Below the pieces are notes generated by a model. The model did not search any database and was not told the DNA's origin. It saw only the letters and a program-made list of their open reading frames with translations. A stretch of DNA of 64,000 nucleotides. Origin: Bacteroidota bacterium (GTDB lineage: Bacteria; Bacteroidota; Ignavibacteria; UBA10030; SZUA-254). The stretch covers positions 3,736 through 67,735 of the forward strand of contig JAWOKN010000056.1 of NCBI GenBank assembly GCA_033854175.1, given 5' to 3'. The translations under genes were made by a program, and so were the position numbers. Positions 7,728-45,271 of the stretch are shown here, one piece after another; positions within the stretch are counted from its first letter, which is position 1; each line of letters opens with the position of its first letter.

Positions 7728-7810
7728 TTCAGATAAGGATTCCGCAAATCCGCAGACGGGGGAGGGAATGCCTATCATCTTTGATAAAACGAAAATCACA
7801 CGGAAACCGA

Positions 7811-29526: not shown

Positions 29527-32202
29527 ATGATGATCGGCACGCTCATATCCCATTACAAAATACTTGAAAAACTCGGCGAGGGAGGAATGGGTGTGGTATA
29601 CAAGGCGCACGACACAAAGCTCGAGCGCGTGGTTGCGCTGAAATTCCCCCCTCAGGCGCTCACGGCCGACCCGGAGGAGAGGGAGCGGTTTTACCAGGAG
29701 GCCCGATCGGCATCGCAGCTTCTCCACCCGAACGTCTGCACGATCTTTGAGATCAACGAATCGGAGAAGCAAATCTATATTGCCATGGAGTATGTCGACG
29801 GCCCGACCCTCAAGAAACGGATTCAGGCAGACAATCCGATGCCCCTGGGAAAATCCCTTGACATCGCCATCCAGATCTGCAACGGGCTTGTTGCCGCCCA
29901 TGAAAAGGGGATCGTGCACCGGGACATCAAATCCGAGAACATACTGCTGACGGCCAGGGGGGAGGTAAAAATCACCGATTTCGGACTCGCCAAGCTCAAA
30001 GGTGCGGAGAAGCTCACGAAAACAGGAAGTACATTGGGCACTGCCGCCTACATGTCCCCCGAGCAGGCGCGTGGTGAGGATGTCGATGCGAGAAGCGACA
30101 TATTCTCCTGCGGGGTGGTACTGTATGAACTCTTCGCCGGCAGGCTTCCTTTCCGCGGAGAACACCAGGCTGCGATACTCTACTCACTGGTGAACGAAGA
30201 GCCCGCGCCCCTGGCGAGGTTCAATGAGCACGTGTCGCCGGACCTGCAGCATATTGTTTCAAAGGCGCTCGCCAAAGACAGGGAGGACCGTTATCAGCAT
30301 GCCGACGAAATGCTTGCCGACTTGAGGCGGGAACGCAAACGCATGGAGTACGCGCGAACCGGTGTAATCATACAGCCAAAAGTGGTTTCCTCCACGCAAG
30401 AAGTCCAAGCGCAGGAAGCCTCAGACCGTTCGGGAGGCACCAAGCGAGTGATATGGGGCGTCGCCGGTGCTGTCATTCTTCTTGTCGCAGCCGGTATTTA
30501 TCTCACGGTCTGGAAACCCGGACCCAATCAGAGCGCGACAAATTCCGCAATCAGCAAGATTGCGGTACTCCCATTCGAGAACATCGGACCATCCGACAAG
30601 GAATATTTTGCGGACGGTCTCACCGACGAGATACGGACAAAGCTCAGTGGGCTTTCGAATCTGGCCGTCATTGCCCGTGCAAGTTCGATGCAGTACAAAA
30701 AGACCACGAAATCCATCTCGGAAATCGGCACCGAACTCAGTGTCGGTTACCTGTTGCAGGGGACCATACGATGGGAGGAAGGAGGATCGTCCCAGAGTGC
30801 TGTTCACCTTTTGGTAAATCCTTCCCTGGTGAAAATCACCGACGGGACGCAGGTCTGGTCGCAGTCATTCGAAGGGACCCTGTCGAGCGTCTTTCAGATG
30901 CAATCCGACATCGCGCAGCAGGTCGCACGCGCGCTCGAGGTGGCATTGAATCCCAGCGACCAGCAAGTCATCACCTCGAGGCCGACCAACAACGCCGAAG
31001 CGTACGATTACTTTTTACAGGGGCAGCAAAAATTGTATTTGCCGACCTCGGCGGACATGAAAGAGGCGCTTCCGATGTTTGAGAAAGCGATCAAACTTGA
31101 TCCAAAATTTGTCGCCGCCTATGCGGATTTATCCCGTGCGTACGCTTTCGCGACATTTCAGGGAATGAGCCCTGACAGCCTCCTTGTGTTATCGAAGAAA
31201 TCGCTTGACAAGGTCAAAGAACTGGAACCAAATTCGTTTCTGGCAAACTGGTCGGAAGGCTACTACTATTATTACGGGTTCAGAGATTACGACCAGGCAT
31301 TACGGCACTTCACCACGGCACTGAATCTCCAGCCCAACAATGTGGACATCATATCCGCGATCGGGTATGTCAAGCGGAGGCAGGGAAAATTCCAGGAAAG
31401 CCGCGATCTCCTCGCCAGGAGCTGTGATCTTGACCCGCAGGCGTGGCGCAACTGGTTCGAGCTCGGCTATGTAGAGCTCGTCATGCGTCAATATCCTCTG
31501 GCGGACGAACACATGAAGCGGGCGCTCCTGGTTTTCGGCAAGGGAAATGTCGCGGTAGCGGCATATCATTCGCAGGCCATCTTCTCCATGAACGGCGACG
31601 TCAGGGGGGCGCAGGAACTCTTCGACCGGGAGGCCGGCGAAAACAGATCGTGGTTATACAAGATGAGGAGTGCTCAACTCCATCTTGCGGGCGGGAATGT
31701 CGGCGCCGCCATAAATGATCTTTCCCGTGCGGTGCTCTCGGAGCCGGACGTGGATTCCACGGTCTACTACATGTTCTCAGGGCTCCTGCATGAACAATCC
31801 GGGCCCCGTAGTGCAGGGCGTGCTTATTTCGATAGTGCAAGAATTCTCGCAGAAAGAACAGTACACAACGCCCCCAATCAGGCCGTGGCTCACATGAATC
31901 TGGGAATCATCCTGGCTCATCTCGGACAAAAAGCCCGTGCAATTGAGGAGGGGGAAAAGGGGGTACGACTGATGCCGCTGGAAAAGGACGCGCTTGATGA
32001 AGGGCCGAACGCACTCTATGAGTTAGCTCAGATTTACGCTCTCACGGGAGAATCTGACGCTGCAATCGACAAGCTTGAACAGATATTGAGCATTCCAAAC
32101 ATGTACTCGGTCTATTTTGTGCAATCCGATCAGGAGCTTGCATCACTTGCGACGCTGCCCCGGTTTCAGAAATTGCTGGAAAAGTACAAAACTGCGCGGT
32201 AA
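29527..32202 (+). CDS. Ser/Thr protein kinase with TM helix, TolB-N-like periplasmic module and C-terminal TPR repeats
   Basis: Kinase motifs: GEGGMGVVYKA, VALK, HRDIKSENILL, DFGLAK, SPEQ. The TM helix is VIWGVAGAVILLVAAGIYLTVW. The extracytoplasmic part has IAVLPFENIGPSDKEYFADGLTDEI followed by multiple TPR-like repeats. Confidence 0.9.
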   Translation: MMIGTLISHYKILEKLGEGGMGVVYKAHDTKLERVVALKFPPQALTADPEERERFYQEARSASQLLHPNVCTIFEINESEKQIYIAMEYVDGPTLKKRIQADNPMPLGKSLDIAIQICNGLVAAHEKGIVHRDIKSENILLTARGEVKITDFGLAKLKGAEKLTKTGSTLGTAAYMSPEQARGEDVDARSDIFSCGVVLYELFAGRLPFRGEHQAAILYSLVNEEPAPLARFNEHVSPDLQHIVSKALAKDREDRYQHADEMLADLRRERKRMEYARTGVIIQPKVVSSTQEVQAQEASDRSGGTKRVIWGVAGAVILLVAAGIYLTVWKPGPNQSATNSAISKIAVLPFENIGPSDKEYFADGLTDEIRTKLSGLSNLAVIARASSMQYKKTTKSISEIGTELSVGYLLQGTIRWEEGGSSQSAVHLLVNPSLVKITDGTQVWSQSFEGTLSSVFQMQSDIAQQVARALEVALNPSDQQVITSRPTNNAEAYDYFLQGQQKLYLPTSADMKEALPMFEKAIKLDPKFVAAYADLSRAYAFATFQGMSPDSLLVLSKKSLDKVKELEPNSFLANWSEGYYYYYGFRDYDQALRHFTTALNLQPNNVDIISAIGYVKRRQGKFQESRDLLARSCDLDPQAWRNWFELGYVELVMRQYPLADEHMKRALLVFGKGNVAVAAYHSQAIFSMNGDVRGAQELFDREAGENRSWLYKMRSAQLHLAGGNVGAAINDLSRAVLSEPDVDSTVYYMFSGLLHEQSGPRSAGRAYFDSARILAERTVHNAPNQAVAHMNLGIILAHLGQKARAIEEGEKGVRLMPLEKDALDEGPNALYELAQIYALTGESDAAIDKLEQILSIPNMYSVYFVQSDQELASLATLPRFQKLLEKYKTAR

Positions 32203-32210
32203 CACCGGAC

Positions 32211-32227
32211 CTGAGGAAGATCCTCAG
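32211..32227 (+). terminator. Short hairpin after the kinase gene
   Basis: CTGAGGA-aga-TCCTCAG forms a 7-bp stem 9 nt after the stop. It is followed by a C/T-rich tract, not a clean T-run. Confidence 0.35.
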
Positions 32228-32339
32228 CCTCCTTCCTGATCATCCCTCCCCCTGGAACCCCCGCATGGGACAGATTCAAAGTCCTGCCTCAATTTTCGAA
32301 AAGAAATTCAAATGAGGCAACGAATCCCGCGATAAAAAC

Positions 32340-32380
32340 CTTCATTTATGATGAAGAATTATTCAACAGTACGTGTTGAA
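32340..32380. promoter_or_regulatory. Two adjacent palindromes in an AT-rich region (candidate activator binding sites)
   Basis: CTTCAT-ttatg-ATGAAG (32340-32356) and TTCAACA-gtacg-TGTTGAA (32362-32380) lie ~180-220 bp upstream of the sigma54-like element at 32560. Confidence 0.3.
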
Positions 32381-32559
32381 TAAATAAACGCATTCATAAA
32401 TACTTGTTTTGAAATTATTTACACATCTTCAGCAGCCTTCGCCCGGTTTTCTGTAAAATAATTCATCAACTCTTCTTCATCTCAATCCTGAAAAAAAGTT
32501 TCACTCCCCCATCTTCTTACATATTCACCACTTAGCATCACGGTTTTTTCCATAGTTAC

Positions 32560-32575
32560 TGGCATGATATTTACA
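32560..32575 (+). promoter_or_regulatory. Sigma54-like promoter (TGGCAT-N5-TTACA) upstream of the GcvH-like/NrfCD-like operon
   Basis: TGGCAT-GATAT-TTACA, with a predicted TSS ~40 nt upstream of ATG 32626, so the GAAGGAG RBS falls in the leader. The -12 GC is AC, which makes this a weak match. Confidence 0.3.
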
Positions 32576-32625
32576 TAAGTGATGGGTGAATAAATAAGCA
32601 CGCAAGGACAGAAGGAGCAGTGAAA

Positions 32626-33303
32626 ATGACAGTCATATTCGTAATAGCGACGATTATATTCTTCCTCACGCTTGATTGGGTTGTGAGGCGGATAAGGGCA
32701 AGAAAAGCAGCACCGGTAACTGCGGTACACCCGTCGGCATATCCGATACGTGTACCGGAGGGGATATTCTTCACCAGATCGCACACCTGGCTCAATCTTT
32801 TCCCCTCGGGGAAAGTACGGCTCGGAATCGATGATTTTGTGGGCCGCATGGTAGAAAACCCGCAGATCATTTTCCTCAAGAAAAGCGGCGAGAGTATCTC
32901 CCGTGGAGAGCCCCTGTTGACGATGAAGGAAGACGAGCATCTGCTGACCGTCAGATCGCCGATCGACGGGGAGATCGAATCGATCAACGAGGAACTCCCG
33001 CGGCATCCCGACCTTTTGAAGGACCTCCTTTTCAGTGACGGCTGGGCATACACGATCAAGCCGAGAAAGTTCTCTGAAATCAAGGGCTTACTTCTCGGGA
33101 CAGAGACGAGGGAATGGATGCGGGCGGAATTCGGCCGTCTGCGTGATTTCTTTGCGGGGATCTCTCACAACGGCACAATAGCCCCGGCCCTCCTGCAGGA
33201 CGGCGGGCCGCCGATGGCGGGCGTCATGAAAACGATGGACGACGCGGTGTGGCAGAATTTCGAGCATGAGTTCCTCACGATCGAAGAATCTGAAAGGGCA
33301 TAG
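32626..33303 (+). CDS. Membrane-anchored GcvH-fold protein (no lipoyl-lysine), paralogue 1
   Basis: ATG 32626 lies 8 nt after GAAGGAG. The N-terminal TM helix is MTVIFVIATIIFFLTLDWVVRRIRARK. The GcvH-like core is FFTRSHTWLNLFPSGKVRLGIDDFVGRMVENPQIIFLKKSGESISRGEPLLTMKEDEHLLTVRSPIDGEIESINEELPRHPDLLKDLLFSDGWAYTIKP. The C-terminal extension contains LQDGG. Confidence 0.7.
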   Translation: MTVIFVIATIIFFLTLDWVVRRIRARKAAPVTAVHPSAYPIRVPEGIFFTRSHTWLNLFPSGKVRLGIDDFVGRMVENPQIIFLKKSGESISRGEPLLTMKEDEHLLTVRSPIDGEIESINEELPRHPDLLKDLLFSDGWAYTIKPRKFSEIKGLLLGTETREWMRAEFGRLRDFFAGISHNGTIAPALLQDGGPPMAGVMKTMDDAVWQNFEHEFLTIEESERA

Positions 33304-33305
33304 CG

Positions 33306-34124
33306 ATGGCGAGTGCGAAGGCGATGTTAATCGACCTCACGATGTGCATCGGGTGCAATTCGTGTCAGGATGCCTGCAAGAAGGCAAACGGTTTACCCGA
33401 AGGGGAGGAACAGCAGTTATCGGCAACCGCCTATACGGCGCTCAATGAATACAACGGCGTCTATGTCCGGAGGATGTGTCAGCACTGCATCCAGCCGACC
33501 TGTGCATCGGTCTGTCCCGTTGGTGCGTTGAAAAAGACGCCCGAGGGGCCTGTCCTCTACGACGAATCGAAGTGTATCGGCTGCCGGTACTGCATGCAGG
33601 CATGTCCGTTCCAGGTGCCTAGGTACGAGTGGAGCAGCACCTATCCGAGAATCCAGAAATGCCGCTTCTGTGCGGAGAGGCTTGCGAAGGGGATGCCCAC
33701 GGCATGTTCGGAGGCATGTCCGACGGGTGCGACAAAATTCGGCGACCGGGACGAACTGGTGCGCGAGGCCTACCAGCGGATATCCGCGGAACCGGGGAAA
33801 TACATCGACAAGGTCTACGGCCTCCAGGAAGTCGGAGGGACGTCAATACTGTACCTCTCCTCGGTTCCGTTCGAGCAGCTGGGATTCAAGACCCAGCTGG
33901 AGTCCAACGCGCTGCCGCTCCTCACGTGGAACGTGCTGTCGAAGATTCCGAACGTGGTCAGTGTCGGCGGAGTGGCGCTCTTCGGCATCTGGTGGATCAC
34001 CAACCGCCGGATGGAACTCGAGAAAGAGCGAAAAAACGGCCGGGCAAACGGTACGGCGCCGGGGGATGACCATCATTCCCGGAAAGAACAAACCCAACAA
34101 ACCGAGAATGGAGAGAGAGTATGA
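33306..34124 (+). CDS. NrfC/HybA/PsrB/DsrO-type 4x[4Fe-4S] ferredoxin subunit with C-terminal TM anchor, no Tat/Sec signal
   Basis: Four cluster motifs: CIGCNSCQDAC, CQHCIQPTCASVCP, CIGCRYCMQACP and CRFC...CSEACP. The C-terminal helix is VVSVGGVALFGIWWITN. The protein starts MASAKAMLIDLTMCIGC, with no RRxFLK. Confidence 0.9.
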   Translation: MASAKAMLIDLTMCIGCNSCQDACKKANGLPEGEEQQLSATAYTALNEYNGVYVRRMCQHCIQPTCASVCPVGALKKTPEGPVLYDESKCIGCRYCMQACPFQVPRYEWSSTYPRIQKCRFCAERLAKGMPTACSEACPTGATKFGDRDELVREAYQRISAEPGKYIDKVYGLQEVGGTSILYLSSVPFEQLGFKTQLESNALPLLTWNVLSKIPNVVSVGGVALFGIWWITNRRMELEKERKNGRANGTAPGDDHHSRKEQTQQTENGERV

Positions 34125-35323
34125 AACGCAGACTTCAGCAACTGACACTCTGGAAGGTCGTCGCCGGGCTGATCATCCTCAGCGGCCTCATATCAACCTA
34201 CGTCCGTTTCGCAAAAGGGCTGGGGGCGGCGACGCACCTGAGCGATCAATTCCCGTGGGGATTATGGATCGGGTTTGACATCCTGTGCGGCGTGGGGCTT
34301 GCGGCCGGGGGGTTCACGCTGGCTGCGATCGTCTACATCTTCAACATCAGGCGGTTTGAAGCGATCATCCGGCCGACCATCTTGACGGCATTCCTCGGCT
34401 ATCTCCTTGTGATTGCCGCGCTGATGTTCGATCTCGGGCGGCCGCTGCAGATATGGCATGCGATCATCATGTGGAACCATCACTCGGTCATGTTCGAGGT
34501 CGCGTGGTGCGTCATGCTCTACACGACAGTTCTCGCCCTTGAATTTTCGCCGATGCTCTTTGAAAAATTCAGGATGAACAACACGCTGAAGACATTCCAC
34601 AAAATCAGCATACCGCTCATTATCCTCGGGGTGATCCTCTCGACGCTGCACCAGTCGTCGCTCGGCTCGCTCTACCTCATCGTGCCCGAGAAGCTCTACG
34701 GCCTCTGGTATTCCGCCTATCTGCCGGTATTCTTCTACGTCTCGGCGATCGCGGTCGGCTGTGCGATGGTCATCTTCGAATCCATCCTGAGTTCCCGGGC
34801 GTTCCGGAAGAGCCTGGAAACGAACCTCCTTGCGGAGCTGGCCCGCATCAGCGTCGTGGCGCTCGCCGTTTACGCCACGATGAAGATCGTCGACTTGAAG
34901 GACCGCGACGTCATCAGCCTCCTCTTCCTCCCCCGCGCCGAGACCTATTTTTACTGGGCTGAGATCACCGTCGGGGTCATCGCACCGATCATACTTTTCT
35001 CCATCAGAAAAGCCCGTGAGAGTCAGACGGGGTTATTCGCCGGGGCCACGATGATCATCACCGGGTTCATCATGAACCGTCTCAACATCAGTCTGACGGG
35101 GATGGAAGGCTGGGCCGGTCTTTCCTACTTCCCGTCATGGATGGAAATTTCCGTCACCCTCACCATCGTCACGGTGGGGTTCATTGCATTCCGGCTTGCG
35201 GCCAAATATCTGCCGGTGTTCAAGCCCGAACTGAACGTTCCCGAAAAGGAATTCGCACACCCGATCGTCGAGGATCTCCACAGCGTCTCATCGTCGCGGG
35301 AACGCTCGATGATACTGGAATAA
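34121..35323 (+). CDS. NrfD/HybB/PsrC/DsrP-type polytopic quinone-interacting membrane subunit (~10 TM)
   Basis: ATGA overlap with the FeS gene. LSDQFPWGLWIGFDILCGVGLAAGGFTLAAIVYIF is the NrfD-family signature region. About 10 hydrophobic helices are visible. Confidence 0.9.
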   Translation: MKRRLQQLTLWKVVAGLIILSGLISTYVRFAKGLGAATHLSDQFPWGLWIGFDILCGVGLAAGGFTLAAIVYIFNIRRFEAIIRPTILTAFLGYLLVIAALMFDLGRPLQIWHAIIMWNHHSVMFEVAWCVMLYTTVLALEFSPMLFEKFRMNNTLKTFHKISIPLIILGVILSTLHQSSLGSLYLIVPEKLYGLWYSAYLPVFFYVSAIAVGCAMVIFESILSSRAFRKSLETNLLAELARISVVALAVYATMKIVDLKDRDVISLLFLPRAETYFYWAEITVGVIAPIILFSIRKARESQTGLFAGATMIITGFIMNRLNISLTGMEGWAGLSYFPSWMEISVTLTIVTVGFIAFRLAAKYLPVFKPELNVPEKEFAHPIVEDLHSVSSSRERSMILE

Positions 35324-35328
35324 TTGTC

Positions 35329-36087
35329 ATGAACGAGAATCAAAAAAATTACACAATCATCCCTGAAGGAGACTCCCGGTGTGTCTGGATGTCGGCCGGG
35401 ATCCTCAGCTACCAGCTCTGCAACCGCGCATTCGACTGCGACGCATGTCCGCTCGACATGGCGATGCGGCAGCACTTCCCGCGACCCGAGGGGGAGAAGG
35501 ATGAGGCGGCGCCAGGCAGGGAGCGTGAGGAAACAGAACTCCGCGGCGCGTACAGTTACACGGCAACGCATTTCTGGGTAAAGTCGATCTCCACCTCGCT
35601 CTACCGTGTGGGACTTGAACCGGGGATAGCCCACGCATTATTCGTCCCGCGGACCATCGTCTTGCCCGCCTCGGGTGAAACGCTCCAGGCATCGCAGCCC
35701 TGTCTCTGGTTCGTGATGGAGGCCGCGACCGTCCCCTTCGACGCATTCGCCGACGGCGTGGTTGTGACGCAGAATGTGCTCTTGCCGGAGCGGCCCTACA
35801 AAGTCCATTACCATCCGTACGACCAGGGATGGCTCTTTGACATGAAGTTCGACGCAGCGGGGGGTGAGCCGGATCTCCTGACCGCGGTCCAGGCGGAGAA
35901 ACTCTACGGCAGGGACCAGAAACTCTTCCGTGACAGGCTCCGCGACACGCTACAGACCGCGCCGGCTGGAGCGACACTCCAGGACGGCGGACAGCTTTTG
36001 AAAAATCTCCCTGAAATGCTCGGACCGAAGAAATACTTCGATCTCATCGAGGAGATCTTTCTGAAAAGGGGTGTCACAAAAAAATAA
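35329..36087 (+). CDS. Cys4-motif + GcvH-fold protein (no lipoyl-lysine), paralogue 2
   Basis: ATG 35329 lies 5 nt after the nrfD-like stop. The N-terminus has CVWMSAGILSYQLCNRAFDCDACP (C-x12-C-x5-C-x2-C). The GcvH-like core is YTATHFWVKSISTSLYRVGLEPGIAHALF...ADGVVVTQNVLLPERPYKVHYHPYDQGWLFDMKF. The C-terminal extension contains LQDGG, as in 32626..33303. Confidence 0.65.
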   Translation: MNENQKNYTIIPEGDSRCVWMSAGILSYQLCNRAFDCDACPLDMAMRQHFPRPEGEKDEAAPGREREETELRGAYSYTATHFWVKSISTSLYRVGLEPGIAHALFVPRTIVLPASGETLQASQPCLWFVMEAATVPFDAFADGVVVTQNVLLPERPYKVHYHPYDQGWLFDMKFDAAGGEPDLLTAVQAEKLYGRDQKLFRDRLRDTLQTAPAGATLQDGGQLLKNLPEMLGPKKYFDLIEEIFLKRGVTKK

Positions 36088-36252
36088 CCCGCCGCGAACA
36101 GGCTGGACGGGGGTACCGCTCACCCGGGGGTGTACAGGGGTGGGCGGTAGTTATTCGGGGTGGGGGTGATCCGGTAAAACCACCTTTAACCATTTTGTGA
36201 TAAAATCCCCGAATTCATTTCAAATCTGATAACTCCGGGGGAAAAGACGGGC

Positions 36253-36278
36253 CGGAGAGAAGCCAAATCTCCGTTTTT
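36253..36278 (+). terminator. Rho-independent terminator of the four-gene operon
   Basis: CGGAGA-gaagccaaa-TCTCCG followed by T5. Confidence 0.6.
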
Positions 36279-36301
36279 CAGTATCATCTCAACCCCCTTT
36301 A

Positions 36302-36317
36302 TGGCACGAGAATTGAC
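36302..36317 (+). promoter_or_regulatory. Sigma54-like element (TGGCACG-N4-TTGAC) just upstream of the sensor kinase gene
   Basis: The -24 half (TGGCACG) is perfect, and this is the only promoter-like element in the 54 nt between the terminator and ATG 36333. The -12 is TTGA, and the predicted TSS (~36328) leaves only a ~5-nt leader, so it is doubtful. Confidence 0.3.
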
Positions 36318-36332
36318 GATAACGGAAATGGT

Positions 36333-37982
36333 ATGAAGGCATTCCGTTCGCTCAGTGTGAGGGTATTTGCGGGGTCATTTCTCCTCCTTGTGACCCTCCT
36401 GGGGCTCTATTCCTATTTTGCGATAAAGTTTCACACCGAACAGATGATGGAGATCGTCCTGGGAAACGCAAGCCGCATCAGCGACATCATCAAGAACTCG
36501 ACCCACTACAGCATGCTCCTCAACAGGAAGGAGGACGTCTACCAGACGATCCTCACCATCGGCAAGGAAAAGGGGGTTGAAGGGATACGGATTTACAACA
36601 AGCGGGGAGAAATCATGGCCTCCTCCCGCACCGAAGAAAAACTGCAGATTGTCGACATGCATGCTGAAGCCTGTTACGTCTGCCATGAGAAGGGAAAACC
36701 CCTGGAATCGCTCGCATCGGACAACAGGATGCGGATCTACACCTCCCCGAAGGGGTACAGGGTACTGGGTTTGATCAACCCCATCCACAACGAGCCAAGC
36801 TGTTCGAATGCCGATTGCCATGCTCATCCGCCTGATAAAACCATACTCGGTGTACTCGACGTTCGGATGTCGCTGGAAAACGTCGACACGGCAATCGCCG
36901 AAGCGCACGCCAAGATGATCAGCTGGGCGGTCGGGGGAGTTCTCCTTGCATCGCTCCTCATCTCGGTCCTCCTCTACAGAACCGTGCATCGGCCCGTCAA
37001 GCGGCTCACGCTGGGGACGCATGAAGTCTCCTCCGGCAACCTCGATCTCCGGATACCCATACACTCGAAGGACGAACTGGGGCAGCTTGCCGAATCGTTC
37101 AATTCGATGACGACCTCATTGCGCAACCTCATTGAAGAGAAAAACACCTGGTCGCGCGAGCTGGAGGAGCGGGTCCGTGAAAAAACCGCCGAGTTGAAGC
37201 ACATTCACGAGCAGATCCTGCAGATTGAAAAGATGACATCGCTCGGGAAGCTCGCGGCGACCGTTGCGCACGAACTGAACAACCCCCTGGAAGGGATCCT
37301 GACCTACGCGAAGCTCCTGGCGAAGCAGCTCAGGAAAGCCGAATTCTCTGCGGACCGGTCAAAGGAATTTCTCGAGGAACTCAATCTCATCATCCAGGAA
37401 ACGGACCGGTGCGGAACGATCGTGAAGAACCTCCTCCTCTTTTCCCGGAAGCAGGTCGGCGAATTCGCGCTTGCGCCTGCGCGGCAGATCGTGGAGAAGG
37501 CCCAGCGTCTCGTGGATCACCACTTCCACATCTCCAACGTGAAATTCGAGGCCACGTACGCGCCTGAGGACGTGTCGCTCATGTGCGACGAAATGCAGAT
37601 CCAGCAGGCCTTGATTGCGCTCTTTGTCAACGCGGTTGAAGCCATGCCGGGGGGCGGCACACTGCGCGTCGATGTCTCGCAGCGTTCGAAGGATGACAAC
37701 ATCATCCTCCGCATTTCGGACACCGGTACGGGGATAGCGGAGGAGGATCTCCACAACATCTTCGAACCATTTTTCACAACAAAAAAGGAGGGTCAGGGTG
37801 TCGGCCTCGGCCTCTCGGTTGTCTACGGCATCGTCGTCCGTCACGGCGGCACGATCAGTGTGGAGTCGAGTCTCAACAAGGGAACGGCATTCACGCTGAC
37901 CTTCCCGGCGCTTGAGCGGAGCACCAAGGGAATCCCGGAGCCGGAGGCGAAAAAATCACCCATTGATCCACACTATGCATAA
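36333..37982 (+). CDS. Sensor histidine kinase with periplasmic domain carrying two heme-c-type motifs
   Basis: Two TM helices flank a ~165-aa periplasmic domain with CYVCH (aa 114-118) and CSNADCH (aa 157-163). It also has a HAMP domain, an H-box (VAHELNNPLEG) and an HATPase domain (NAVEAM, DTGTGI, GVGLGLS). Confidence 0.9.
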   Translation: MKAFRSLSVRVFAGSFLLLVTLLGLYSYFAIKFHTEQMMEIVLGNASRISDIIKNSTHYSMLLNRKEDVYQTILTIGKEKGVEGIRIYNKRGEIMASSRTEEKLQIVDMHAEACYVCHEKGKPLESLASDNRMRIYTSPKGYRVLGLINPIHNEPSCSNADCHAHPPDKTILGVLDVRMSLENVDTAIAEAHAKMISWAVGGVLLASLLISVLLYRTVHRPVKRLTLGTHEVSSGNLDLRIPIHSKDELGQLAESFNSMTTSLRNLIEEKNTWSRELEERVREKTAELKHIHEQILQIEKMTSLGKLAATVAHELNNPLEGILTYAKLLAKQLRKAEFSADRSKEFLEELNLIIQETDRCGTIVKNLLLFSRKQVGEFALAPARQIVEKAQRLVDHHFHISNVKFEATYAPEDVSLMCDEMQIQQALIALFVNAVEAMPGGGTLRVDVSQRSKDDNIILRISDTGTGIAEEDLHNIFEPFFTTKKEGQGVGLGLSVVYGIVVRHGGTISVESSLNKGTAFTLTFPALERSTKGIPEPEAKKSPIDPHYA

Positions 37983-37997
37983 CCTCACAGAAAACGT

Positions 37998-39344
37998 ATG
38001 AACAACGATATATCCATACTCATTGTCGACGATGAAAAGGTCGTCCGCGAATCCCTCTCGAAGTGGTTCAAGGAAGACGACTTCATCGTGGGCGCATCAG
38101 AAAACGCGGCTGAAGCCCTGAAACAGCTCCAGGTGCGGAAATGGGACATCATTCTCCTCGACATCAAAATGCCGGGGATGGACGGGATGGAGTTACAGCA
38201 GCGAATCCGGGAGATCGACCCCGGAGCGACGATCATCTTCATCACGGCGCACGCCTCGGTCGACACGGCGGTCCAGGCCCTGAAGGCGGGGGCGTTCGAT
38301 TACATCGCGAAGCCGATCGACCCCGACTACCTGTCGCATCTGATCCAGAACGCCATCAAGCAGCGGATCCTGACGGGAGAAAACATCCGTCTGAAGGAGC
38401 AGATCACCGAATTCGCGAAAGTCGATGAGATCATCGGCGACTCCCCGCAGATGAAGAAGGTCTTCGAACTGATCGAAACGGTGGCAAAGACCGACACGAC
38501 GGTCATGATCCGGGGCGAAAGCGGAACGGGGAAGGAGCTCATCGCGCGGGCGATTCACGGCAACAGCGAACGGCGGTATTTTCCCATCGTCGCCATCAAC
38601 TGCGGGGCATTGCCGGAGGGAATACTGGAAAGCGAACTCTTCGGTCATGAGCGGGGTGCGTTTACCGGGGCGCAGTACAGGAGAAAGGGAAAAATCGAGC
38701 TGGCCGACGGCGGCACATTATTTCTTGACGAGGTCGGCAACATCGGGATGAAGACCCAGATGGACCTCCTCCGTGTAATCGAGACAAAGCAATTTTCGCG
38801 TGTCGGGGGAAACGAGCTGATCAAGGTGGACTTCAGGACCATCTGCGCGACAAACAGGGATCTCGAGAAGGCCGTTCAGGAGGGCACCTTCCGTGAAGAC
38901 CTCTATTACCGTCTCAACGTCTTCTCCGTCCTCGTCCCCCCCTTGCGCGAGCGGAAGTCGGACATCCCCCTGCTGGCAAATTACTTTTTGAAAAAATACT
39001 CGCGATCGATGGGGAAGCCGATCGTGACCATCTCCTCGGACGCGATGGATCTGATGGTCAAATACAACTGGCCCGGGAACATCCGCGAGCTGGAAAACGC
39101 GATAGAGCGGGCGATGGTGGTCGGAAAGCCCCCCTGCATCAAGGCGGTGGATCTGCCGATACAGTTCTCCGATCTCATTGCGGCACCTTCGCTCGGATCT
39201 CTGGCATCGATGGAAAAAAGCCACATCGCCGAGATCCTCCGGATGAACAACTGGAACATCTCCCGGTCCGCGGAAGTCCTGCAGATCGACCGGGTCACTC
39301 TCTACAACAAGATCGAAAAATATGGCCTGAAAAAGCCGCAGTGA
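37998..39344 (+). CDS. Sigma54-dependent response regulator (NtrC/AtoC family enhancer-binding protein)
   Basis: Receiver domain (ILIVDDE...ILLDIKMPGMDG), AAA+ domain (GESGTGKE, ERGAFTGA, GTLFLDEV) and a C-terminal Fis-type HTH (RSAEVLQIDRVTLYNKIEKYGL). Confidence 0.95.
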   Translation: MNNDISILIVDDEKVVRESLSKWFKEDDFIVGASENAAEALKQLQVRKWDIILLDIKMPGMDGMELQQRIREIDPGATIIFITAHASVDTAVQALKAGAFDYIAKPIDPDYLSHLIQNAIKQRILTGENIRLKEQITEFAKVDEIIGDSPQMKKVFELIETVAKTDTTVMIRGESGTGKELIARAIHGNSERRYFPIVAINCGALPEGILESELFGHERGAFTGAQYRRKGKIELADGGTLFLDEVGNIGMKTQMDLLRVIETKQFSRVGGNELIKVDFRTICATNRDLEKAVQEGTFREDLYYRLNVFSVLVPPLRERKSDIPLLANYFLKKYSRSMGKPIVTISSDAMDLMVKYNWPGNIRELENAIERAMVVGKPPCIKAVDLPIQFSDLIAAPSLGSLASMEKSHIAEILRMNNWNISRSAEVLQIDRVTLYNKIEKYGLKKPQ

Positions 39345-39880
39345 CGACAGCCATCCACATCATGACGACGGCGTCGCACCCGGTAACCGATCTCGGACAC
39401 ATTTCACACACCATACAGAGGATATTCAGCCTACCGGTCGACGTGGTCAAGGGGAGTTTAAACCCGGAGCGTGCGTTCGACAGCTCCCGCCGTCAGTACA
39501 ATTCCACAGCACTCATTGCGCACATCCTCTCCTCCAACGGGGGTGACGGGAGGAAAATCCTCGGGCTTGTGGATGTCGATCTCTTCATCCCGATCCTCAC
39601 CTTTGTCTTCGGCGAGGCACAATTCACCGGCTGTGTTGCTGTCGTCTCCTCCTTCCGTCTTGCGAACCAGTTCTACGGGCTTGAACACGATCCGATCTTA
39701 CTCCGTGACCGGGTCGAAAAGGAAATCGTGCATGAGCTCGGCCACACATTCGGTCTCCACCACTGCAGGCATTTTGACTGTGTCATGCGCTCCTCGACCT
39801 ATGTGGAGGAGATCGACTTAAAAAAGGTGGAGATGTGCGGCACATGTTCGGAAAAACTCCAGCTCATCACCGCGCACTAG
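39341..39880 (+). CDS. amzA: Archaemetzincin-family zinc metalloprotease
   Basis: RRQYNSTALIAHIL, DLFIPILTFVFGEAQ and the signature VHELGHTFGLHHCRHFDCVMRSS...CGTC (HExxHxxGxxHC-x4-CxM...CxxC). A GTGA start/stop overlap links it to the response regulator gene; ATG 39362 is an alternative start. Confidence 0.85.
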   Translation: MTTAIHIMTTASHPVTDLGHISHTIQRIFSLPVDVVKGSLNPERAFDSSRRQYNSTALIAHILSSNGGDGRKILGLVDVDLFIPILTFVFGEAQFTGCVAVVSSFRLANQFYGLEHDPILLRDRVEKEIVHELGHTFGLHHCRHFDCVMRSSTYVEEIDLKKVEMCGTCSEKLQLITAH

Positions 39881-39929
39881 ACGATGCGCGAGCGAGCGCG
39901 CGCGGGTGCGGAAAAACAGAGATTTCACC

Positions 39930-39965
39930 CCTGCAAAAATCACATTGCAGGCTTTCATTTTTGAT
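39930..39965 (+). terminator. Rho-independent terminator after amzA
   Basis: CCTGCAA-aaatcaca-TTGCAGG followed by CTTTCATTTTTG. Confidence 0.65.
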
Positions 39966-40027
39966 AAAAACGCATCCGTTTTTTGAGGTTTCAGAGTTGA
40001 TTCGGCACATTTTGGCTTATGCCTCAA

Positions 40028-40043
40028 TGGAATGATTCTTGCA
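40028..40043 (+). promoter_or_regulatory. Sigma54-like promoter (TGGAAT-N5-TTGCA) upstream of PFOR
   Basis: TGGAAT-GATTC-TTGCA has correct GG-N10-GC spacing. The predicted TSS (~40054) lies 44 nt upstream of ATG 40098, with GAAAGGA in the leader. Confidence 0.45.
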
Positions 40044-40097
40044 TTTTACTTTGCGGTTTACTTCAATCTTTTACTTTCTCGAAAGGACATTTGAGCC

Positions 40098-43000
40098 ATG
40101 CCAGATGTAGCGGCAGGAAGAACATTACGGCAGAAGGTCACGCTTGACGGCAACGAAGCGGCTGCCTTCTCCGCGCACAAATTAAACGAAGTCATAGCAA
40201 TCTACCCCATCACCCCCTCCTCCAACATGGGGGAATGGTCGGACGAATGGTCGTCGCTCGGGAGAAAAAACCTCTGGGGGACGGTACCTCTTGTCGTCGA
40301 AATGCAGAGTGAAGGGGGAGCTTCGGGGGCGGTCCACGGGGCGCTGCAGGCCGGCGCGCTCTCGACCACGTTCACATCGTCACAGGGACTCCTCCTGATG
40401 ATCCCGAACATGTTCAAGATCGCGGGCGAACTGACCTCGACCGTCTTCCACATCGCGGCGCGCACGGTAGCGACCCACGCCCTCTCCATATTCGGCGATC
40501 ACAGCGACGTCATGGCGGTCCGGTCGGCGGGCTGGGCGATGCTGGCTTCGAACTCGATACAGGAGATCATGGACTTTGCCCTGATTGCGACGGCGGCGAC
40601 GCTTGAATCGCGTGTTCCGTTTGTCCATTTCTTTGACGGATTCCGGTCATCGCACGAGGTGATGAAAATCGAACAGCTTTGCGAGGACGACTTCCGGGCG
40701 ATGATGGATGACAAGCTCATCTTCCAGCACCGGGCGCGGGGGCTCTCGCCGGAGCATCCCGTCATGCGCGGATCGGCGCAGAACCCCGACGTCTTCTTCC
40801 AGGCCCGGGAAACCGTGAACCCCTACTATCTCGCATGTCCCGCGATCGTCCAGAAAACGATGGACAAATTCGCGCGTGTTGTCGGCCGGAAATACGAGCT
40901 CTTCCAGTACGTCGGTGCGGCCGATGCTGAGCGGATCATCATCATGATGGGATCCGGTGCGGAAACCGCCGAGGAGACGGTGGAGTATTTGAACCGGAAA
41001 GGCGGCAAGGTGGGATTACTCAAGGTCCGGCTCTTCCGGCCCTTCTCCATCGAGCATTTTTTGAAGGCGCTCCCCTCCTCGACCAAGTCGATTGCGGTAC
41101 TCGACCGGACGAAGGAGCCGGGAAGCACAGGGGAACCGCTCTACCAGGACGTTACCACAGCATTAAGCGAAGCCTTTGCCGGCGGCACGTCGCCCCTCAC
41201 GTCGTTCCCGAAAATCATCGGCGGCCGATACGGCCTCTCGTCGAAAGAATTCACACCGGCGATGGTGAAAGCGGTCTACGACGAACTTCAGAAGCCGGCC
41301 CCCAAAAACCACTTCACCGTCGGGATCAAGGATGACGTCACCCACACGAGTCTGTCGTACGACGCGAGTTTCACGACCGAAGCGGACGATGTGATCCGGG
41401 CCATCTTCTACGGTCTCGGAGCGGACGGGACCGTGAGTGCGAACAAAAATTCAATCAAGATCATCGGCGAGGACACCGACAATTTTGCGCAGGGGTATTT
41501 CGTCTACGACTCCAAGAAATCCGGATCGACGACCGTCTCCCATCTGCGTTTCGGACCCCGTCCGATCCACTCGACCTATCTGATCTCGCAGGCAAATTTC
41601 GTCGCATGTCATCAGTGGTTCTTCCTCGAAAAATACGACGTTTTGCAGCCCGTCATCCAGGGCGGAACGTTCCTTCTGAACAGCTCGTTCGGGCCCCAGG
41701 AAGTCTGGGACAACCTGCCGGTCAACATCCAGAAGCACATCATCGAGAAGAAGCTCAAATTCTACGTCATCGACGCCTACAACGTGGCGAAAGAAACAGG
41801 GATGGGCGGAAGGATCAACACCATCATGCAGACATGTTTCTTCGCCATATCCGGTGTACTCCCCCGGGAGGACGCCATCAAGGCGATCAAGCACTCCGTC
41901 GAAAAGACCTACGGCAAGAAGGGGGAGGATGTTGTCAGGCAGAACTTCATGGCCATCGACAAGACGCTGGCCAACCTCTTCGAGGTCAAGGTACCCTCGA
42001 AGGTCACGAGCACGATAACGATGCCCGACACCGTATCACCGAAGGCGCCCAAATACATCCGGGAAGTCACGGCGGAAATCATCGCGGGTTTCGGTGACAG
42101 GCTCCCGGTGAGTTCGATGCCCGTCGACGGGACATTCCCGGTCGGATCGGCGCAGTGGGAAAAGCGAAACATTGCTTTGGAGATTCCGGTATGGGAACCC
42201 GAAATCTGCATACAGTGCAACAAGTGCATCCTGGTCTGTCCGCACGCAACCATACGGACCAAGGTCTTCGATCCGAAACTCCTTGGGGGCGCGCCCGCGA
42301 CATTCAAGTCGATCGACTTCAAGGGGATGGAATACAAGGGTATGAAATACTCCATCCAGGTCGCCCCGGAAGACTGTACGGGGTGCGGGCTCTGTGTGGA
42401 CATCTGTCCTGCGAAGAGCAAGACCATGACCAAGGTCAAGGCCATCAACATGAAACCGCAGCCACCGATACGCGAGGCCGAGCGTGACAACTACGACTAC
42501 TTCCTGTCGCTTCCGGAAGTCGACCGGCGGACCGTCAAGGTTGACAACATCAAAGGATCGCAGTTCCTGCAGCCGCTCTTTGAATACTCCGGGGCATGTT
42601 CGGGCTGTGGCGAGACACCCTACGTAAAACTCGTCAGCCAGCTTTTCGGCGACAGGTGTGTTGTAGCAAATGCGACCGGTTGTTCCTCCATCTACGGCGG
42701 CAACCTCCCGACCACACCATGGACGGCGAACAAGGACGGAAGGGGGCCGGCATGGTCGAATTCACTCTTTGAAGACAATGCGGAATTCGGGCTCGGCATG
42801 CGGCTGACCATTGACAAGCACACCGAGATGGCGCGGGAGCTCGTGAAAAAGCTCTCAACATCGATCGGTGAAAACCTTGCCACGGCGATCCTCAATGCCA
42901 ATCAATCCGACGAAGCCGGCATCCACGAGCAGCGCGAGCGGGTACAGTTCCTGAAGGACAAGCTGCGCGAGCTTGCCACCCCTGATGGCAACAATCTCCT

Positions 43001-43733
43001 CACCATCGCCGACAATCTTGTCAAGCGGAGCGTCTGGATCATGGGTGGGGACGGCTGGGCATATGACATCGGGTACGGCGGGTTGGATCACGTGCTTGCC
43101 TCGGGGCGGAACGTCAACATCCTCGTCCTCGACACGGAAGTCTACTCGAACACAGGCGGTCAGATGTCGAAGGCCACATTCCGGTCGGCGATTGCGAAAT
43201 TCGCGGCCGCAGGAAAACCGACGGCAAAGAAAGACCTGGCGATGCTCGCCATGACCTATGGAAACGTCTACGTGGCGAAGGTCGCGATGGGGAGCAACGA
43301 TCTGCAGACCGTCCGGGCATTTCTGGAAGCGGAAGCCTATGACGGACCCTCGATCATCATCGCCTACAGCCACTGCATCGCGCACGGGATCAACATGACA
43401 CGGGGAATGCAGAACCAGAAGCTTGCGGTTGAGAGCGGTTACTGGCCGATCTTCCGGTACAATCCGATGCTGGAGCGGGAAGGAAAGAACCCGTTCAAGC
43501 TCGACTCCAAGGCACCCCGGATACCACTGCAGGAATTCACGCAGCTGGAGACCCGGTTCAAGATGCTCGAGAAGAGCTATCCCGAACGCGCAAAGCAACT
43601 GAGCGCGCTTGCCCAGAAAGACGTCTATCTCCGCTGGAAAGTCTACGAGCATCTGGCAAAAGAAGACGGCGATGGTGCGGCGCCGGAGGGGCAGCAGACA
43701 AAGAAACCCACAACCATGGGAGAGACGGTCTAG
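40098..43733 (+). CDS. nifJ: Pyruvate:ferredoxin (flavodoxin) oxidoreductase, single-polypeptide type
   Basis: 1211 aa. Motifs: [25 protein letters not shown], the ferredoxin domain [12 protein letters not shown] / [12 protein letters not shown], and the TPP domain [17 protein letters not shown]. Confidence 0.97.
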
Positions 43734-43768
43734 GCCGTCGTACCCCGACTGATCTCAAGGACAGACAC

Positions 43769-44758
43769 ATGGATCTCTCAACCACATACCTCGGACTCAA
43801 ACTCAAAAACCCGATCGTCCCGTCGGCCGGGCCGCTGTCGCGCTCGCTCGACAGCATGAGAAGGCTGGAGGAAGCGGGAGCCTCTGCGATTGTCATTCAC
43901 TCCCTCTTCGAGGAGCAGATCGCGCACGAGACGGCGGAATTGTACCACTACCTCTCGTACGGAACGGAAAGCTTTGCGGAAGCGCTGACCTATTTCCCCG
44001 AGCTGCAGCAATACGACCGGGGGCCGGAAGAATACGTCGAGTTCATCCACACGGCAAAGAACTCGCTGACGATTCCGGTGATCGGCAGTCTCAACGGGAT
44101 CTCGGTGGGCGGTTGGATCAAGTATGCGAGAAAGATCCAGGAGGCGGGAGCAGATGCGATCGAGCTGAACATCTATTACATCCCGACCGATCCCGAGCTG
44201 CGGGGGATCGATGTGGAGGACCGGTATCTCGAGGTCCTCTACGCGGTAAAGGAAACCGTGACAATCCCGGTGGCGGTCAAGCTCAGCCCGTTTTTCAGTT
44301 CGCTCGCGCATTTCGCGAAGCGGCTCGACCATGCGGGGGCGAACGGGCTCGTCCTCTTCAACCGGTTCTACCAGCCCGACATCGACCTCGAATCACTTGA
44401 AGTAACGCCCAACGTCATCCTCAGCACCCCCCATGCACTGCGGCTTCCCATGCGGTGGATAGCGATACTCTCGGGGAACATCAAGGCGAGTCTTGCCGCG
44501 ACGAGCGGGATCCACACGGCGGAGGACGTCCTCAAGATGCTCCTTGTCGGGGCCGATGTGACCATGATGTGTTCGGCCCTCTTAAAAAACGGGCCGTCGT
44601 ACCTGGCCGATGTCCTCCAGAGCGTGGAACGGTGGATGATCGAGCGGGAATACCTCTCCCTGCAGCAGATGAAGGGAAGCATGAACCAGCGGTCCATTGC
44701 AGATCCCTCGGCCTTTGAACGCGCCAATTACATGAAAGCACTCCACAGTTACAAATAA
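43769..44758 (+). CDS. Dihydroorotate dehydrogenase-like (class 1 PyrD-fold, FMN TIM-barrel) protein
   Basis: [24 protein letters not shown]..., [22 protein letters not shown]. Confidence 0.8.
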
Positions 44759-44772
44759 CCAATGGAAAATCT

Positions 44773-45228
44773 ATGAGCATATTTTTTAGCCGTCAATGCG
44801 AGTACGCCCTTCAGGCGGTCATGTACATCGCCCTCAAACCGGAGAACGAGATGAGTTCGATCCGCGAGCTGTCGCGGACGCTCGGCATCCCGTATCATTT
44901 CCTTGCAAAAATCCTCCAGGACCTCACGCGGAAAGGATTGCTGACATCCCTGAAAGGTTCCACCGGCGGGTACATGCTTGCGATGCCGAAGGAAACCATC
45001 ACACCGTTCCACATCGTCGATGCCATTGACGGATCAAGTTTTCTGAACAATTGTCTCCTCGGTTTTTCATCCTGCTCAAGCGAAAAACCGTGCGCGTTGC
45101 ATTCCCAATGGGAGGGTATGCGGGAGAAACTCAATACCATGCTGAAATCGACCAACATCTATGAGGCGGCGCTCAGCATGAAGAAACCGCAATATCTCCA
45201 TAATCAACCCGGGCCAAGCACCACCTGA
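44773..45228 (+). CDS. Rrf2-family transcriptional regulator with three-Cys putative Fe-S ligand set
   Basis: Its wHTH region is FSRQCEYALQAVMYIALKPENEMSSIRELSRTLGIPYHFLAKILQDLTRKGLLTSLKGSTGGY. The Cys spacing is NNCLLGFSSCSSEKPCALH (C-x6-C-x5-C), like IscR/NsrR-type cluster ligands. Confidence 0.9.
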   Translation: MSIFFSRQCEYALQAVMYIALKPENEMSSIRELSRTLGIPYHFLAKILQDLTRKGLLTSLKGSTGGYMLAMPKETITPFHIVDAIDGSSFLNNCLLGFSSCSSEKPCALHSQWEGMREKLNTMLKSTNIYEAALSMKKPQYLHNQPGPSTT

Positions 45229-45231
45229 TGA

Positions 45232-45255
45232 ATATCGGATAAATCTATCCGATAT
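45232..45255. promoter_or_regulatory. Perfect 10-4-10 palindromic operator
   Basis: ATATCGGATA-AATC-TATCCGATAT starts 4 nt after the rrf2 stop and directly abuts the -24 element at 45256. A second, slightly imperfect copy lies at 7704-7727. Confidence 0.6.
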
Positions 45256-45271
45256 TGGCACAGATGTTGCA
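45256..45271 (+). promoter_or_regulatory. Consensus sigma54 promoter (TGGCAC-N5-TTGCA)
   Basis: TGGCAC-AGATG-TTGCA matches the -24/-12 consensus fully. It is oriented toward the NapH-like gene, with a predicted TSS ~45282. Confidence 0.7.

Follow-up and report, generated by a model that had tools for sequence, protein, structure and literature searches.

The closest described relatives of the locus studied here are periplasmic haem-c sensors of the GSU0582/GSU0935 kind, NtrB/NtrC-like two-component systems and archaemetzincins, a peptidase family that was defined about twenty years ago and for which crystal structures exist. Members of all three kinds lie together in a stretch of 64,000 nucleotides (nt) from a Bacteroidota bacterium (assembly GCA_033854175.1, contig JAWOKN010000056.1); this whole stretch is called the window, and coordinates are given on it. 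A sensor histidine kinase gene (36333-37982, forward strand, 549 amino acids, aa) is followed by a gene for an NtrC-type sigma-54 enhancer-binding protein, hereafter the activator (37998-39344, forward strand, 448 aa), and by an archaemetzincin (peptidase M54) gene (39341-39880, forward strand, 179 aa). Each part of this cassette belongs to a known kind: a HisKA kinase, an sCache_heme-like sensor, an NtrC-family activator and an archaemetzincin that is a full member of its family. What appears to be undescribed is the fixed kinase-activator-archaemetzincin arrangement, its association with GcvH-fold, iron-sulfur (Fe-S) and NrfD genes, and the predicted two-haem sensor. On balance, and with moderate confidence, we favor the reading that the three genes form a conserved, self-activating haem sensing/sigma-54 cassette in which the archaemetzincin is a post-translational arm; the signal is most likely redox state or nitric oxide (NO), perceived through haem.

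The GSU0582- and GSU0935-type domains (PDB 3B47 and 3B42; PF21563) have been grouped with DUF3365/Tll0287 as sCache_heme in a 2026 preprint by Deshpande et al. (PMC12889525). The window kinase resembles these two proteins in having a single periplasmic Cache/PDC-like fold between two transmembrane (TM) helices, a putative haem-c motif in a helix and loop inserted before the last strand, a candidate distal Met on the N-terminal helix (M61, corresponding to Met60) and a fusion to a HAMP-containing signalling protein. It differs in its output, a histidine kinase feeding a sigma-54 activator rather than a chemoreceptor, and in its motifs, as the sensors of the cassette mostly carry CX4CH instead of CXXCH and have a second CXXCH in the loop between strands 2 and 3; moreover, the window protein falls below the Pfam cut-off. 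The likeness to NtrB/NtrC, AtoS/AtoC and ZraS/ZraR extends to a HAMP-HisKA-HATPase_c kinase, a receiver-AAA+ (GAFTGA)-HTH_8 activator, palindromic sites about 80-110 nt from a -24/-12 promoter, and probable autoregulation. Unlike these systems, the cassette has a predicted haem-c sensor and a third, co-translated metzincin gene, and its proteins score below the equivalog cut-offs.

The archaemetzincin shares its size, fold and 31-35% identity with archaeal AmzA (2X7M of M. kandleri, 3ZVS/4AXQ of A. fulgidus), AMZ-tk and human AMZ1/AMZ2, as well as the HEXXHXXGXXH catalytic zinc site, the Cys4 structural zinc site and the SRRQYNST and FVFGEA motifs. It differs from them in being bacterial, in standing behind a sigma-54 activator gene, and in a spacer of X16 instead of X17; to our knowledge, archaea and eukaryotes have no sigma-54. 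As an analogy only, NifL-NifA and PspA-PspF also have a sigma-54 activator that adjoins, and is co-produced with, a dedicated partner acting post-translationally, but in the cassette the activator comes first and an intact hydrolase takes the place of a sensor or anti-activator. Finally, the module upstream of the cassette recalls HmcBC/HybAB/DsrOP in pairing a four-cluster ferredoxin-like subunit with a C-terminal anchor and an NrfD-family quinone-interacting membrane subunit. Nevertheless, it scores below the respective cut-offs (HmcB 254 against 420, HmcC 342 against 550), its Fe-S subunit lacks a Tat (twin-arginine translocation) signal, it is flanked by two GcvH-fold proteins without a lipoyl-lysine, and it has no catalytic or cytochrome subunit.

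The kinase, activator and archaemetzincin cassette

The three open reading frames (ORFs) lie where a first-pass annotation, made from the sequence alone, had placed them. At the junction of the last two (...CAGTGACG...), the activator ends in the codons CAG TGA, with its stop at 39342-39344, and the G of CAG together with the TG of TGA forms the GTG start of the archaemetzincin (39341-39343), giving an overlap of 4 nt. The NCBI gene call for the archaemetzincin (P0121, 172 aa) begins at Met8. Homologues begin at the GTG position with V/M-T-T-S-I-H-I-x-N, in which Ile5 and Asn9 are nearly invariant, and their first strand is conserved; consequently the GTG inside GTGA, already noticed at first pass, is the better call.

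To follow this arrangement across genomes, one genome per species was scanned, which gave 589 relatives, and the best 80 loci were analyzed by searching six-frame ORFs with the window proteins. The activator stands directly 5' of the archaemetzincin in 73 of the 76 loci with enough sequence, and the three exceptions are ORF-boundary artefacts or frameshifts. The first-pass annotation had named this comparison as one by which its reading could be refuted, and the adjacency proved to be general. The kinase is 5' of the activator in 65 of 67 loci, in 57 of them with the same haem sensor. The gap between activator and archaemetzincin is 22 nt or less in 66 of 75 loci; stop and start overlap by 4 nt in 23 loci (mostly as GTGA) and by 1 nt in 5, and they abut in another 5, with start-stop overlaps retained in distant lineages. 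The labels of these loci cover at least ten phyla in all, including Bacteroidota, Ignavibacteriota, Acidobacteriota, Zixibacteria, Gemmatimonadota, Latescibacterota, Desulfobacterota, Krumholzibacteria, Methylomirabilota, Wallbacteria and Leptospirales.

The closest relatives of the window are labelled Bacteroidota. Among four homologues that were looked up, the same row of seven genes (GcvH-like, Fe-S, NrfD, GcvH-like, kinase, activator, archaemetzincin) is kept at 78% and 64% identity, and at 55% in an Ignavibacteriae metagenome-assembled genome, where the pyruvate:ferredoxin oxidoreductase (PFOR) gene does not follow downstream as it does in the window. Even for an archaemetzincin homologue that is only 36% identical, the genes in front are NrfD, a GcvH-like gene, a kinase and an activator, and in loci that lack the module or have it on the opposite strand, kinase, activator and archaemetzincin still stand together. 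The activator and the archaemetzincin are the most conserved unit, since the pair stays where the sensor or the module changes; the haem kinase comes next and the GcvH-like genes after it. In L040, L041, L055, L064 and L077, the pair is kept behind a kinase without the haem sensor domain. These loci are of Geobacter, Desulfuromonadales, Desulforapulum and other Desulfobacterota type, with L040 labelled Leptospirales; judged from their ORFs, the sensor is swapped in Desulfobacterota-type loci while the activator-archaemetzincin pair stayed.

The activator is a complete NtrC-family protein, in agreement with the first-pass assignment. It matches Response_reg (PF00072, 4.5e-34), Sigma54_activat (PF00158, 9.2e-71), AAA_lid_14 (PF25601, 4.6e-26) and HTH_8 (PF02954, 2.8e-10), with Walker A at residue 173 and GAFTGA at residues 220-225 (nt 38655-38672). 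Its NCBIfam scores are far below the equivalog cut-offs (AtoC 472.7 against 714, NtrC 425.9 against 558.6, ZraR 391.5 against 760), so it belongs to none of these named systems, and across 75 orthologues it is conserved in the way usual for the family. An apparent fusion of AAA_lid and M54 domains (P0283, locus L089) was rejected as an artefact of a 2x-coverage contig with several frameshifted genes and a garbled HTH region; the other long archaemetzincin homologues have only N-terminal extensions without domains. A PADLOC defence-system search gave no match for the kinase or the archaemetzincin, and the activator matched only the generic AAA+ part of RtcR-type models. An Rfam search of 28000-45500 gave no matches.

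The archaemetzincin carries the full signature described at first pass, HELGHTFGLHHCRHFDCVM-x16-CGTC, with the zinc/catalytic motif at nt 39731-39847; the spacer from the Met to the last Cys pair is X16, compared with X17 in the published consensus. It has HEXXHXXGXXH with the general-base Glu and C-X4-C-X-M...C-X2-C, which provides the structural zinc site and the Met-turn, and it scores 162.4 bits on NF033823, above the cut-off of 145. H131, E132, H135, G138, H141, C142, C147, M149, C166 and C169 are invariant in 34 homologues. Foldseek matched its model (pLDDT 83.2) to 3LMC, 2X7M and 3ZVS with TM-scores of 0.75-0.83 and 31-35% identity, and phmmer aligned it to 2X7M over nearly its full length (E 3.4e-25). 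It is presumably an active zinc peptidase, and cytoplasmic because neither a signal peptide nor a membrane segment was found in its sequence. Residues 84-94 (39590-39622; P-I-L-T-F-V-F-G-E-A-Q, largely invariant) are the most conserved stretch outside the zinc site, and nowhere else in the model does pLDDT fall below 50; this stretch may be a mobile substrate-binding loop. The family comprises about 4,200 clusters at 50% identity. We know of no physiological substrate for an archaemetzincin in any domain of life, and our literature search found no physiological role for the family and no paper linking archaemetzincins or M54 with sigma-54, enhancer-binding proteins, NrfD or GcvH.

The main rival to a dedicated role is that the archaemetzincin may be a regulon-encoded peptidase, mere cargo that serves amino-acid catabolism as a cytoplasmic amino- or oligopeptidase and leaves signalling and module proteins untouched, its tight spacing reflecting operon compaction. 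The putative regulon of the window includes alanine dehydrogenase, glutamate dehydrogenase and PFOR, which would suit such a function, and the activator has no substrate-like feature. Furthermore, the known activities of the family include breakdown of synthetic substrates and peptides by human AMZ1 and AMZ2 and of casein by AMZ-tk (PMC4681839). Against it, activator and archaemetzincin remain paired in at least ten phyla, whereas the rest of the putative regulon varies, with PFOR present only in close relatives; no other non-signalling gene accompanies the activator without exception, and distant lineages retain the start-stop overlaps. We regard this explanation as a realistic possibility, though a rather unlikely one.

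Periplasmic sensor domain of the kinase

The kinase has hydrophobic segments at about residues 6-33 and 193-218, with a periplasmic stretch of about 160 aa between them, and its order of domains is TM1, a periplasmic Cache-type domain with two haem-c motifs, TM2, HAMP (PF00672, 4.5e-18), HisKA (PF00512, 1.7e-14) and HATPase_c (PF02518, 2.1e-27). With the H-box VAHELNNPL, it is a class I (HisKA) sensor histidine kinase. The first 220 residues contain only four Cys, all within CYVCH (residues 114-118, nt 36672-36686) and CSNADCH (residues 157-163, nt 36801-36821), and the first-pass description of these motifs in a periplasmic domain between two TM helices stands. The domain itself, at about residues 34-192 (36432-36908), was identified as a divergent sCache_heme or PF21563-type domain from Pfam and PDB profile matches. 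Its AlphaFold model (pLDDT 84.8) is a single Cache/PDC domain, with lower confidence around both Cys-His motifs, and Foldseek matched it to the sensor domains of WalK, KinD, CitA and DctB with E values down to 4.5e-10.

With its first 222 residues as the query, 144 relatives were retrieved from many phyla, and an alignment of 35 of them showed C114, C117, H118, C162, H163 and M61 to be invariant and C157 nearly so. For motif counts, 63 full-length sensors were taken from archaemetzincin-linked kinases, and both Cys-His motifs are present in 61 of these 63 orthologues. CYVCH occurs in 59 of 61, having been lost in two Acidobacteriota loci (L085 and L086) that keep the second motif; C157 is found in 61 of 61, C162 and H163 in 60 of 61, and M61 (codon 36513-36515) in 61 of 61. 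The second motif is C-x4-CH in nearly all orthologues and CYGCH, a CXXCH form, in a few. CX4CH is an accepted haem-c motif in cytochromes c3, though not the canonical form in sCache_heme.

The relationship to GSU0582 and GSU0935 emerged from an orthologue-profile search of PDB, which retrieved 3B42 (GSU0935) with E 1.3e-5 and 3B47 (GSU0582) with 0.047. The profile alignment places CSNADCH on the CQSCH of both proteins, with C157, C162 and H163 on Cys140, Cys143 and His144, and M61, the candidate distal ligand, on Met60; CYVCH, in the loop between strands 2 and 3, has no counterpart there. In GSU0935, Cys140 and Cys143 bind the haem, His144 and Met60 are its axial ligands, and Met binding and release is tied to redox state (PMC8396549). 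Among 19 orthologues, 18 match PF21563 with E values no higher than 1 (best 5.9e-8). On these profile matches, the sensor is a divergent sCache_heme domain, distantly related to GSU0582 and GSU0935. Because the second motif and M61 align with the GSU0935 site and CX4CH swaps with CXXCH among orthologues, both motifs are very probably haem-c sites, which strengthens the haem reading of the first-pass annotation. The extra CXXCH in the strand 2-3 loop leads to the prediction that the domain probably carries two haems; no description of a two-haem sCache_heme member was found in the literature. The organism is able to make c-type cytochromes, as a multihaem cytochrome is encoded at 3289-5205. That protein bears a C-terminal type IX secretion sorting domain, which suggests that it is extracellular and that the organism is of Bacteroidota type.

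The redox-sensing role proposed at first pass holds only in part, in that a haem sensor is supported whereas its signal could be NO or carbon monoxide (CO) instead of redox potential (PMC12889525). An explanation that differs from ours in the signal only is that the sensor detects such a diatomic gas and not ambient redox potential. Members of sCache_heme fused to signalling modules behave as sensors of NO and not of O2 (PMC12889525), GSU0582 and GSU0935 bind both NO and CO through displacement of Met60 (PMC8396549), and the invariant residues of the orthologues include no sixth ligand for the CYVCH site, as expected of a five-coordinate gas-binding haem. However, the putative regulon (PFOR, amino-acid dehydrogenases, a quinone-linked module, FeoB and a cytochrome) points to energy and redox metabolism rather than NO detoxification, and no NO reductase or Hcp gene was seen beside the cassette. 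We consider a purely gas-sensing function somewhat improbable, although it deserves to be kept in view.

Predicted promoters, candidate binding sites and the neighboring module

The cassette has a predicted sigma-54-type promoter of its own, which had been missed at first pass (TGGCACGAGAATTGAC, 36302-36317, forward strand). It lies 15 nt before the kinase ATG, and because of this closeness the leader of the transcript would be very short. A candidate activator-binding site (ATTTCAAATCTGATAA, 36217-36232, forward strand) is found 85 nt upstream of its -24 element. The module has a comparable pair on the same strand, with a promoter at 32560-32575 (TGGCATGATATTTACA) whose -12 element lacks the G and a site at 32479-32494 (ATCTCAATCCTGAAAA), 81 nt upstream. 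Upstream of PFOR, a forward-strand promoter with intact GG and GC (TGGAATGATTCTTGCA, 40028-40043) follows two candidate sites (ATTTCACCCCTGCAAA and CTTTCATTTTTGATAA, within 39922-39967) that start at 39922 and 39952, 30 nt apart and 106 and 76 nt upstream of the promoter. The strict -24/-12 consensus (TGGCAC-N5-TTGC, its GG and GC doublets separated by ten bases) is present at 40028; 36302 has TTGA and 32560 has TTAC, and a strict GG/GC requirement missed the conserved promoters of the module.

Conservation in relatives supports these promoters, including the two at 32560 and 40028 that the first-pass annotation had called sigma-54-like. Upstream of the kinase, TGGCAY-N5-YTG(C/A) occurs in 21 of 56 loci, as opposed to 1.6% of background windows, and the loci that have it are all of Bacteroidota/Ignavibacteriota type and carry it 15-40 nt before the start codon. 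TGGCAC-N5-TTNCA is kept upstream of the first module gene in L002, L003, L005, L008, L015, L019 and L033, and TGGAATGATT[CA]TTG[CT]A upstream of PFOR in L001, L002, L005, L007, L008 and L018. These elements are conserved in relatives whose flanking sequence has diverged. In at least 17 loci, the -24 element of the kinase promoter is preceded by a palindrome resembling TTCTCA-N4-TGAGAA, mostly at a distance of 84-97 nt (range 64-97); in L003 it is perfect (12/12), and several loci have a second copy 31 nt away.

Eight pairs of promoter and site were counted in the window, compared with 0.78 +/- 0.85 in shuffles, and 27 over all loci, compared with 2. Besides those of the module (32560), the cassette (36302) and PFOR (40028), they comprise promoters at 3345 (region 3280-3360, forward strand) for the multihaem cytochrome, 7702 (7687-7787, reverse strand) for FeoB, 19725 (19710-19830, reverse strand) for alanine dehydrogenase and an acetyl-CoA hydrolase/transferase, 25530 (25515-25635, reverse strand) for glutamate dehydrogenase, and 28927 (28821-28942, forward strand) for a HypC-like gene. 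The sites upstream of these five further promoters often occur as two copies 31 nt apart. We infer that the activator would bind the shared sites and activate its own operon, self-activation being implied by the conserved promoter at 36302.

Two other elements were considered and set aside. A hairpin at 39930-39951 with a T-run, flagged by the terminator scan, overlaps the sites upstream of PFOR; a terminator is possible, but because relatives keep the half-sites without their complementarity, the hairpin is read mainly as binding sites. The first-pass annotation had proposed palindromes at 32340-32380 as activator targets. The perfect palindrome at 32359-32383 (TTATTCAACA-N5-TGTTGAATAA), between a Ser/Thr kinase gene and the module promoter, is unlike the shared motif and lies 190 nt from the promoter, and the shared sites at 32479, 36217, 39922 and 39952 are likelier targets.

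The module (32620-36087, forward strand), recognized from Pfam and NCBIfam matches and from co-location, consists of a membrane-anchored GcvH-like protein (32620-33303), an HmcB/HybA-like Fe-S protein (33306-34124), an NrfD/HmcC-like membrane protein (34121-35323) and a second GcvH-like protein (35329-36087). Among 42 well-flanked loci, a GcvH-like gene is near the cassette in 36 and the Fe-S and NrfD genes in 29; in the reverse direction, a search with the second GcvH-like protein led to 21 well-flanked metagenome loci, of which 16 have the archaemetzincin and 19 the activator. Since the co-location holds both ways, the module is a usual partner of the cassette and not the orphan that it had been taken for. 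In some Acidobacteriota loci, only its GcvH-like genes adjoin the cassette. PFOR (40098-43733, forward strand) is downstream of the archaemetzincin in the closest relatives only and is consequently taken as a lineage-specific target.

The proteins of the module have several features of their own. The Fe-S subunit, which has no Tat signal, starts directly at the first ferredoxin motif and probably faces the cytoplasm, unlike HybA or HmcB. Both GcvH-fold proteins have an invariant D-G-G, behind which about 30 residues form a conserved tail; the first is membrane anchored, and the second has an invariant N-terminal Cys4 motif (C18, C31, C37, C40). A lipoyl-carrier function was rejected for both, as no conserved lysine occupies the lipoylation position. 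In the metagenome loci L101, L117, L120, L146 and L154, a second pair of haem-sensor kinase and activator stands beside the module, added to the archaemetzincin-linked pair or replacing it.

This association also gives rise to the explanation that the archaemetzincin processes or matures the GcvH-like proteins, for instance by cutting them close to the conserved C-terminal DGG, and is linked to the activator only for co-expression. The counts of 36 in 42 and 16 in 21 are in its favor, as are the Acidobacteriota that keep the GcvH-like genes alone and the invariant DGG with its tail in both proteins. Nevertheless, the residues behind DGG are themselves conserved, as would be unusual if they were a propeptide to be cut off, and 6 of the 42 loci have no GcvH-like gene nearby. 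We judge this explanation to be unlikely. We give about the same low credence to the idea that a different, global sigma-54 activator serves the promoters and sites, with the cassette merely within its regulon. The eight similar pairs before central-metabolism genes would fit a global regulator, but the cassette activator is the only enhancer-binding protein encoded in the 64 kb, and the site is kept at a fixed distance upstream of the cassette promoter in Bacteroidota/Ignavibacteriota loci that share little else.

Proposed mechanism and genomic setting

In the mechanism that we favor, the kinase would expose a periplasmic Cache-type domain with covalently bound haem c, a chemistry predicted from the homology described above. 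One haem site would be formed by C157, C162 and H163 with Met61 as a switchable distal ligand, as in GSU0582 and GSU0935, and a second, specific to this subfamily, by C114, C117 and H118. A shift in haem redox state, or the arrival of NO or CO at the haem, would alter Met61 ligation, and the change would pass through TM2 and HAMP to the kinase core. The kinase would then phosphorylate the activator, a wiring for which the conserved promoters and sites argue, and the activator would bind TTCTCA-N4-TGAGAA-like sites about 75-105 nt upstream of sigma-54 promoters and open them. Its targets would be its own operon (36302), the GcvH-like/Fe-S/NrfD membrane redox module (32560) and, in this lineage, PFOR (40028), and probably also the alanine dehydrogenase, glutamate dehydrogenase, HypC-like, FeoB and multihaem cytochrome genes. 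Translated from the same message directly behind the activator, the archaemetzincin would have its production tied to that of the activator, both in timing and in approximate amount. The conserved linkage suggests that it acts as a post-translational arm on a protein of the pathway and not as a general housekeeping protease; its substrate may be the activator, in which case cleavage would reset the positive feedback loop, or the GcvH-like proteins.

That the Cys-His motifs bind metal or form disulfides without haem is highly improbable: four Cys arranged as CX2C...CX4C could in principle bind zinc, and the AlphaFold confidence drops around both motifs, but nearly every orthologue has His right after the second Cys, CX4CH and CXXCH replace each other, a haem-c site known from crystal structures is the counterpart of the second motif and M61 in the alignment, and two lineages drop the first motif while keeping the second, a misfit for a four-Cys site.

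Several observations weigh against the favored mechanism. For the sensor, PF21563 scores 19.4 bits on the full window kinase and 23.9 bits on the domain alone, short of the Pfam cut-off of 27, and a single-sequence PDB search with the periplasmic domain found nothing useful. For the regulon, the promoters at 36302 and 32560 deviate from the canonical -12 GC, and a window-wide scan with the sigma-54 consensus alone gave 63 matches against 80 expected, without enrichment. The TTCTCA-N4-TGAGAA motif was not found upstream of the kinase outside Bacteroidota/Ignavibacteriota-type loci; its assignment to the cassette activator draws on co-location and conservation at the activator's own operon, and another activator elsewhere in the genome could bind these sites. 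For the protease arm, a hypothesis in line with the proteolytic control suggested at first pass, no conserved linker or tail resembling a cleavage site was found in the activator across 75 orthologues, no true natural fusion of activator and archaemetzincin was found, and some GcvH-like partners are missing, as in the 6 of 42 loci above. In addition, some archaeal archaemetzincins have only weak or non-specific activity in vitro, and since archaea possess the enzyme but lack sigma-54, its chemistry must be independent of the activator.

A bolder form of the proposal, which we put forward tentatively and hold to be doubtful, makes the archaemetzincin a full part of a three-component sigma-54 system. 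Induced by the signal and co-produced stoichiometrically, this zinc protease would cut the activator or a GcvH-fold partner and thereby set the duration or irreversibility of the response, and the sensor would be the first two-haem Cache domain. If true, a protease family that is conserved from archaea to humans would gain its first known role and physiological substrate. The cassette already offers the first consistent genetic context for the archaemetzincin family and a tractable setting for finding a substrate. Likewise, the haem-binding Cache family would be extended to a two-haem, CX4CH-containing subfamily wired to transcription. The shared architecture of promoters and sites suggests control of anaerobic energy metabolism in little-studied lineages of Bacteroidota, Ignavibacteriota and Acidobacteriota, with a candidate regulon of PFOR, amino-acid dehydrogenases, the uncharacterized quinone-linked GcvH-fold module, iron uptake and an extracellular cytochrome. 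The neighboring module, in turn, gains a candidate regulator and a testable inducing signal.

Two further genes of the window were noted. Directly upstream of the module, 29527-32202 encodes a Ser/Thr protein kinase with a TM segment and TPR repeats; it is absent at the matching position in the relative L002 and, for that reason, is probably outside the conserved cluster. On the reverse strand, 20845-23826 encodes a 993-aa protein with a PPDK_N domain, the ATP-binding domain of pyruvate phosphate dikinase, and a weak receiver-like N-terminal region.

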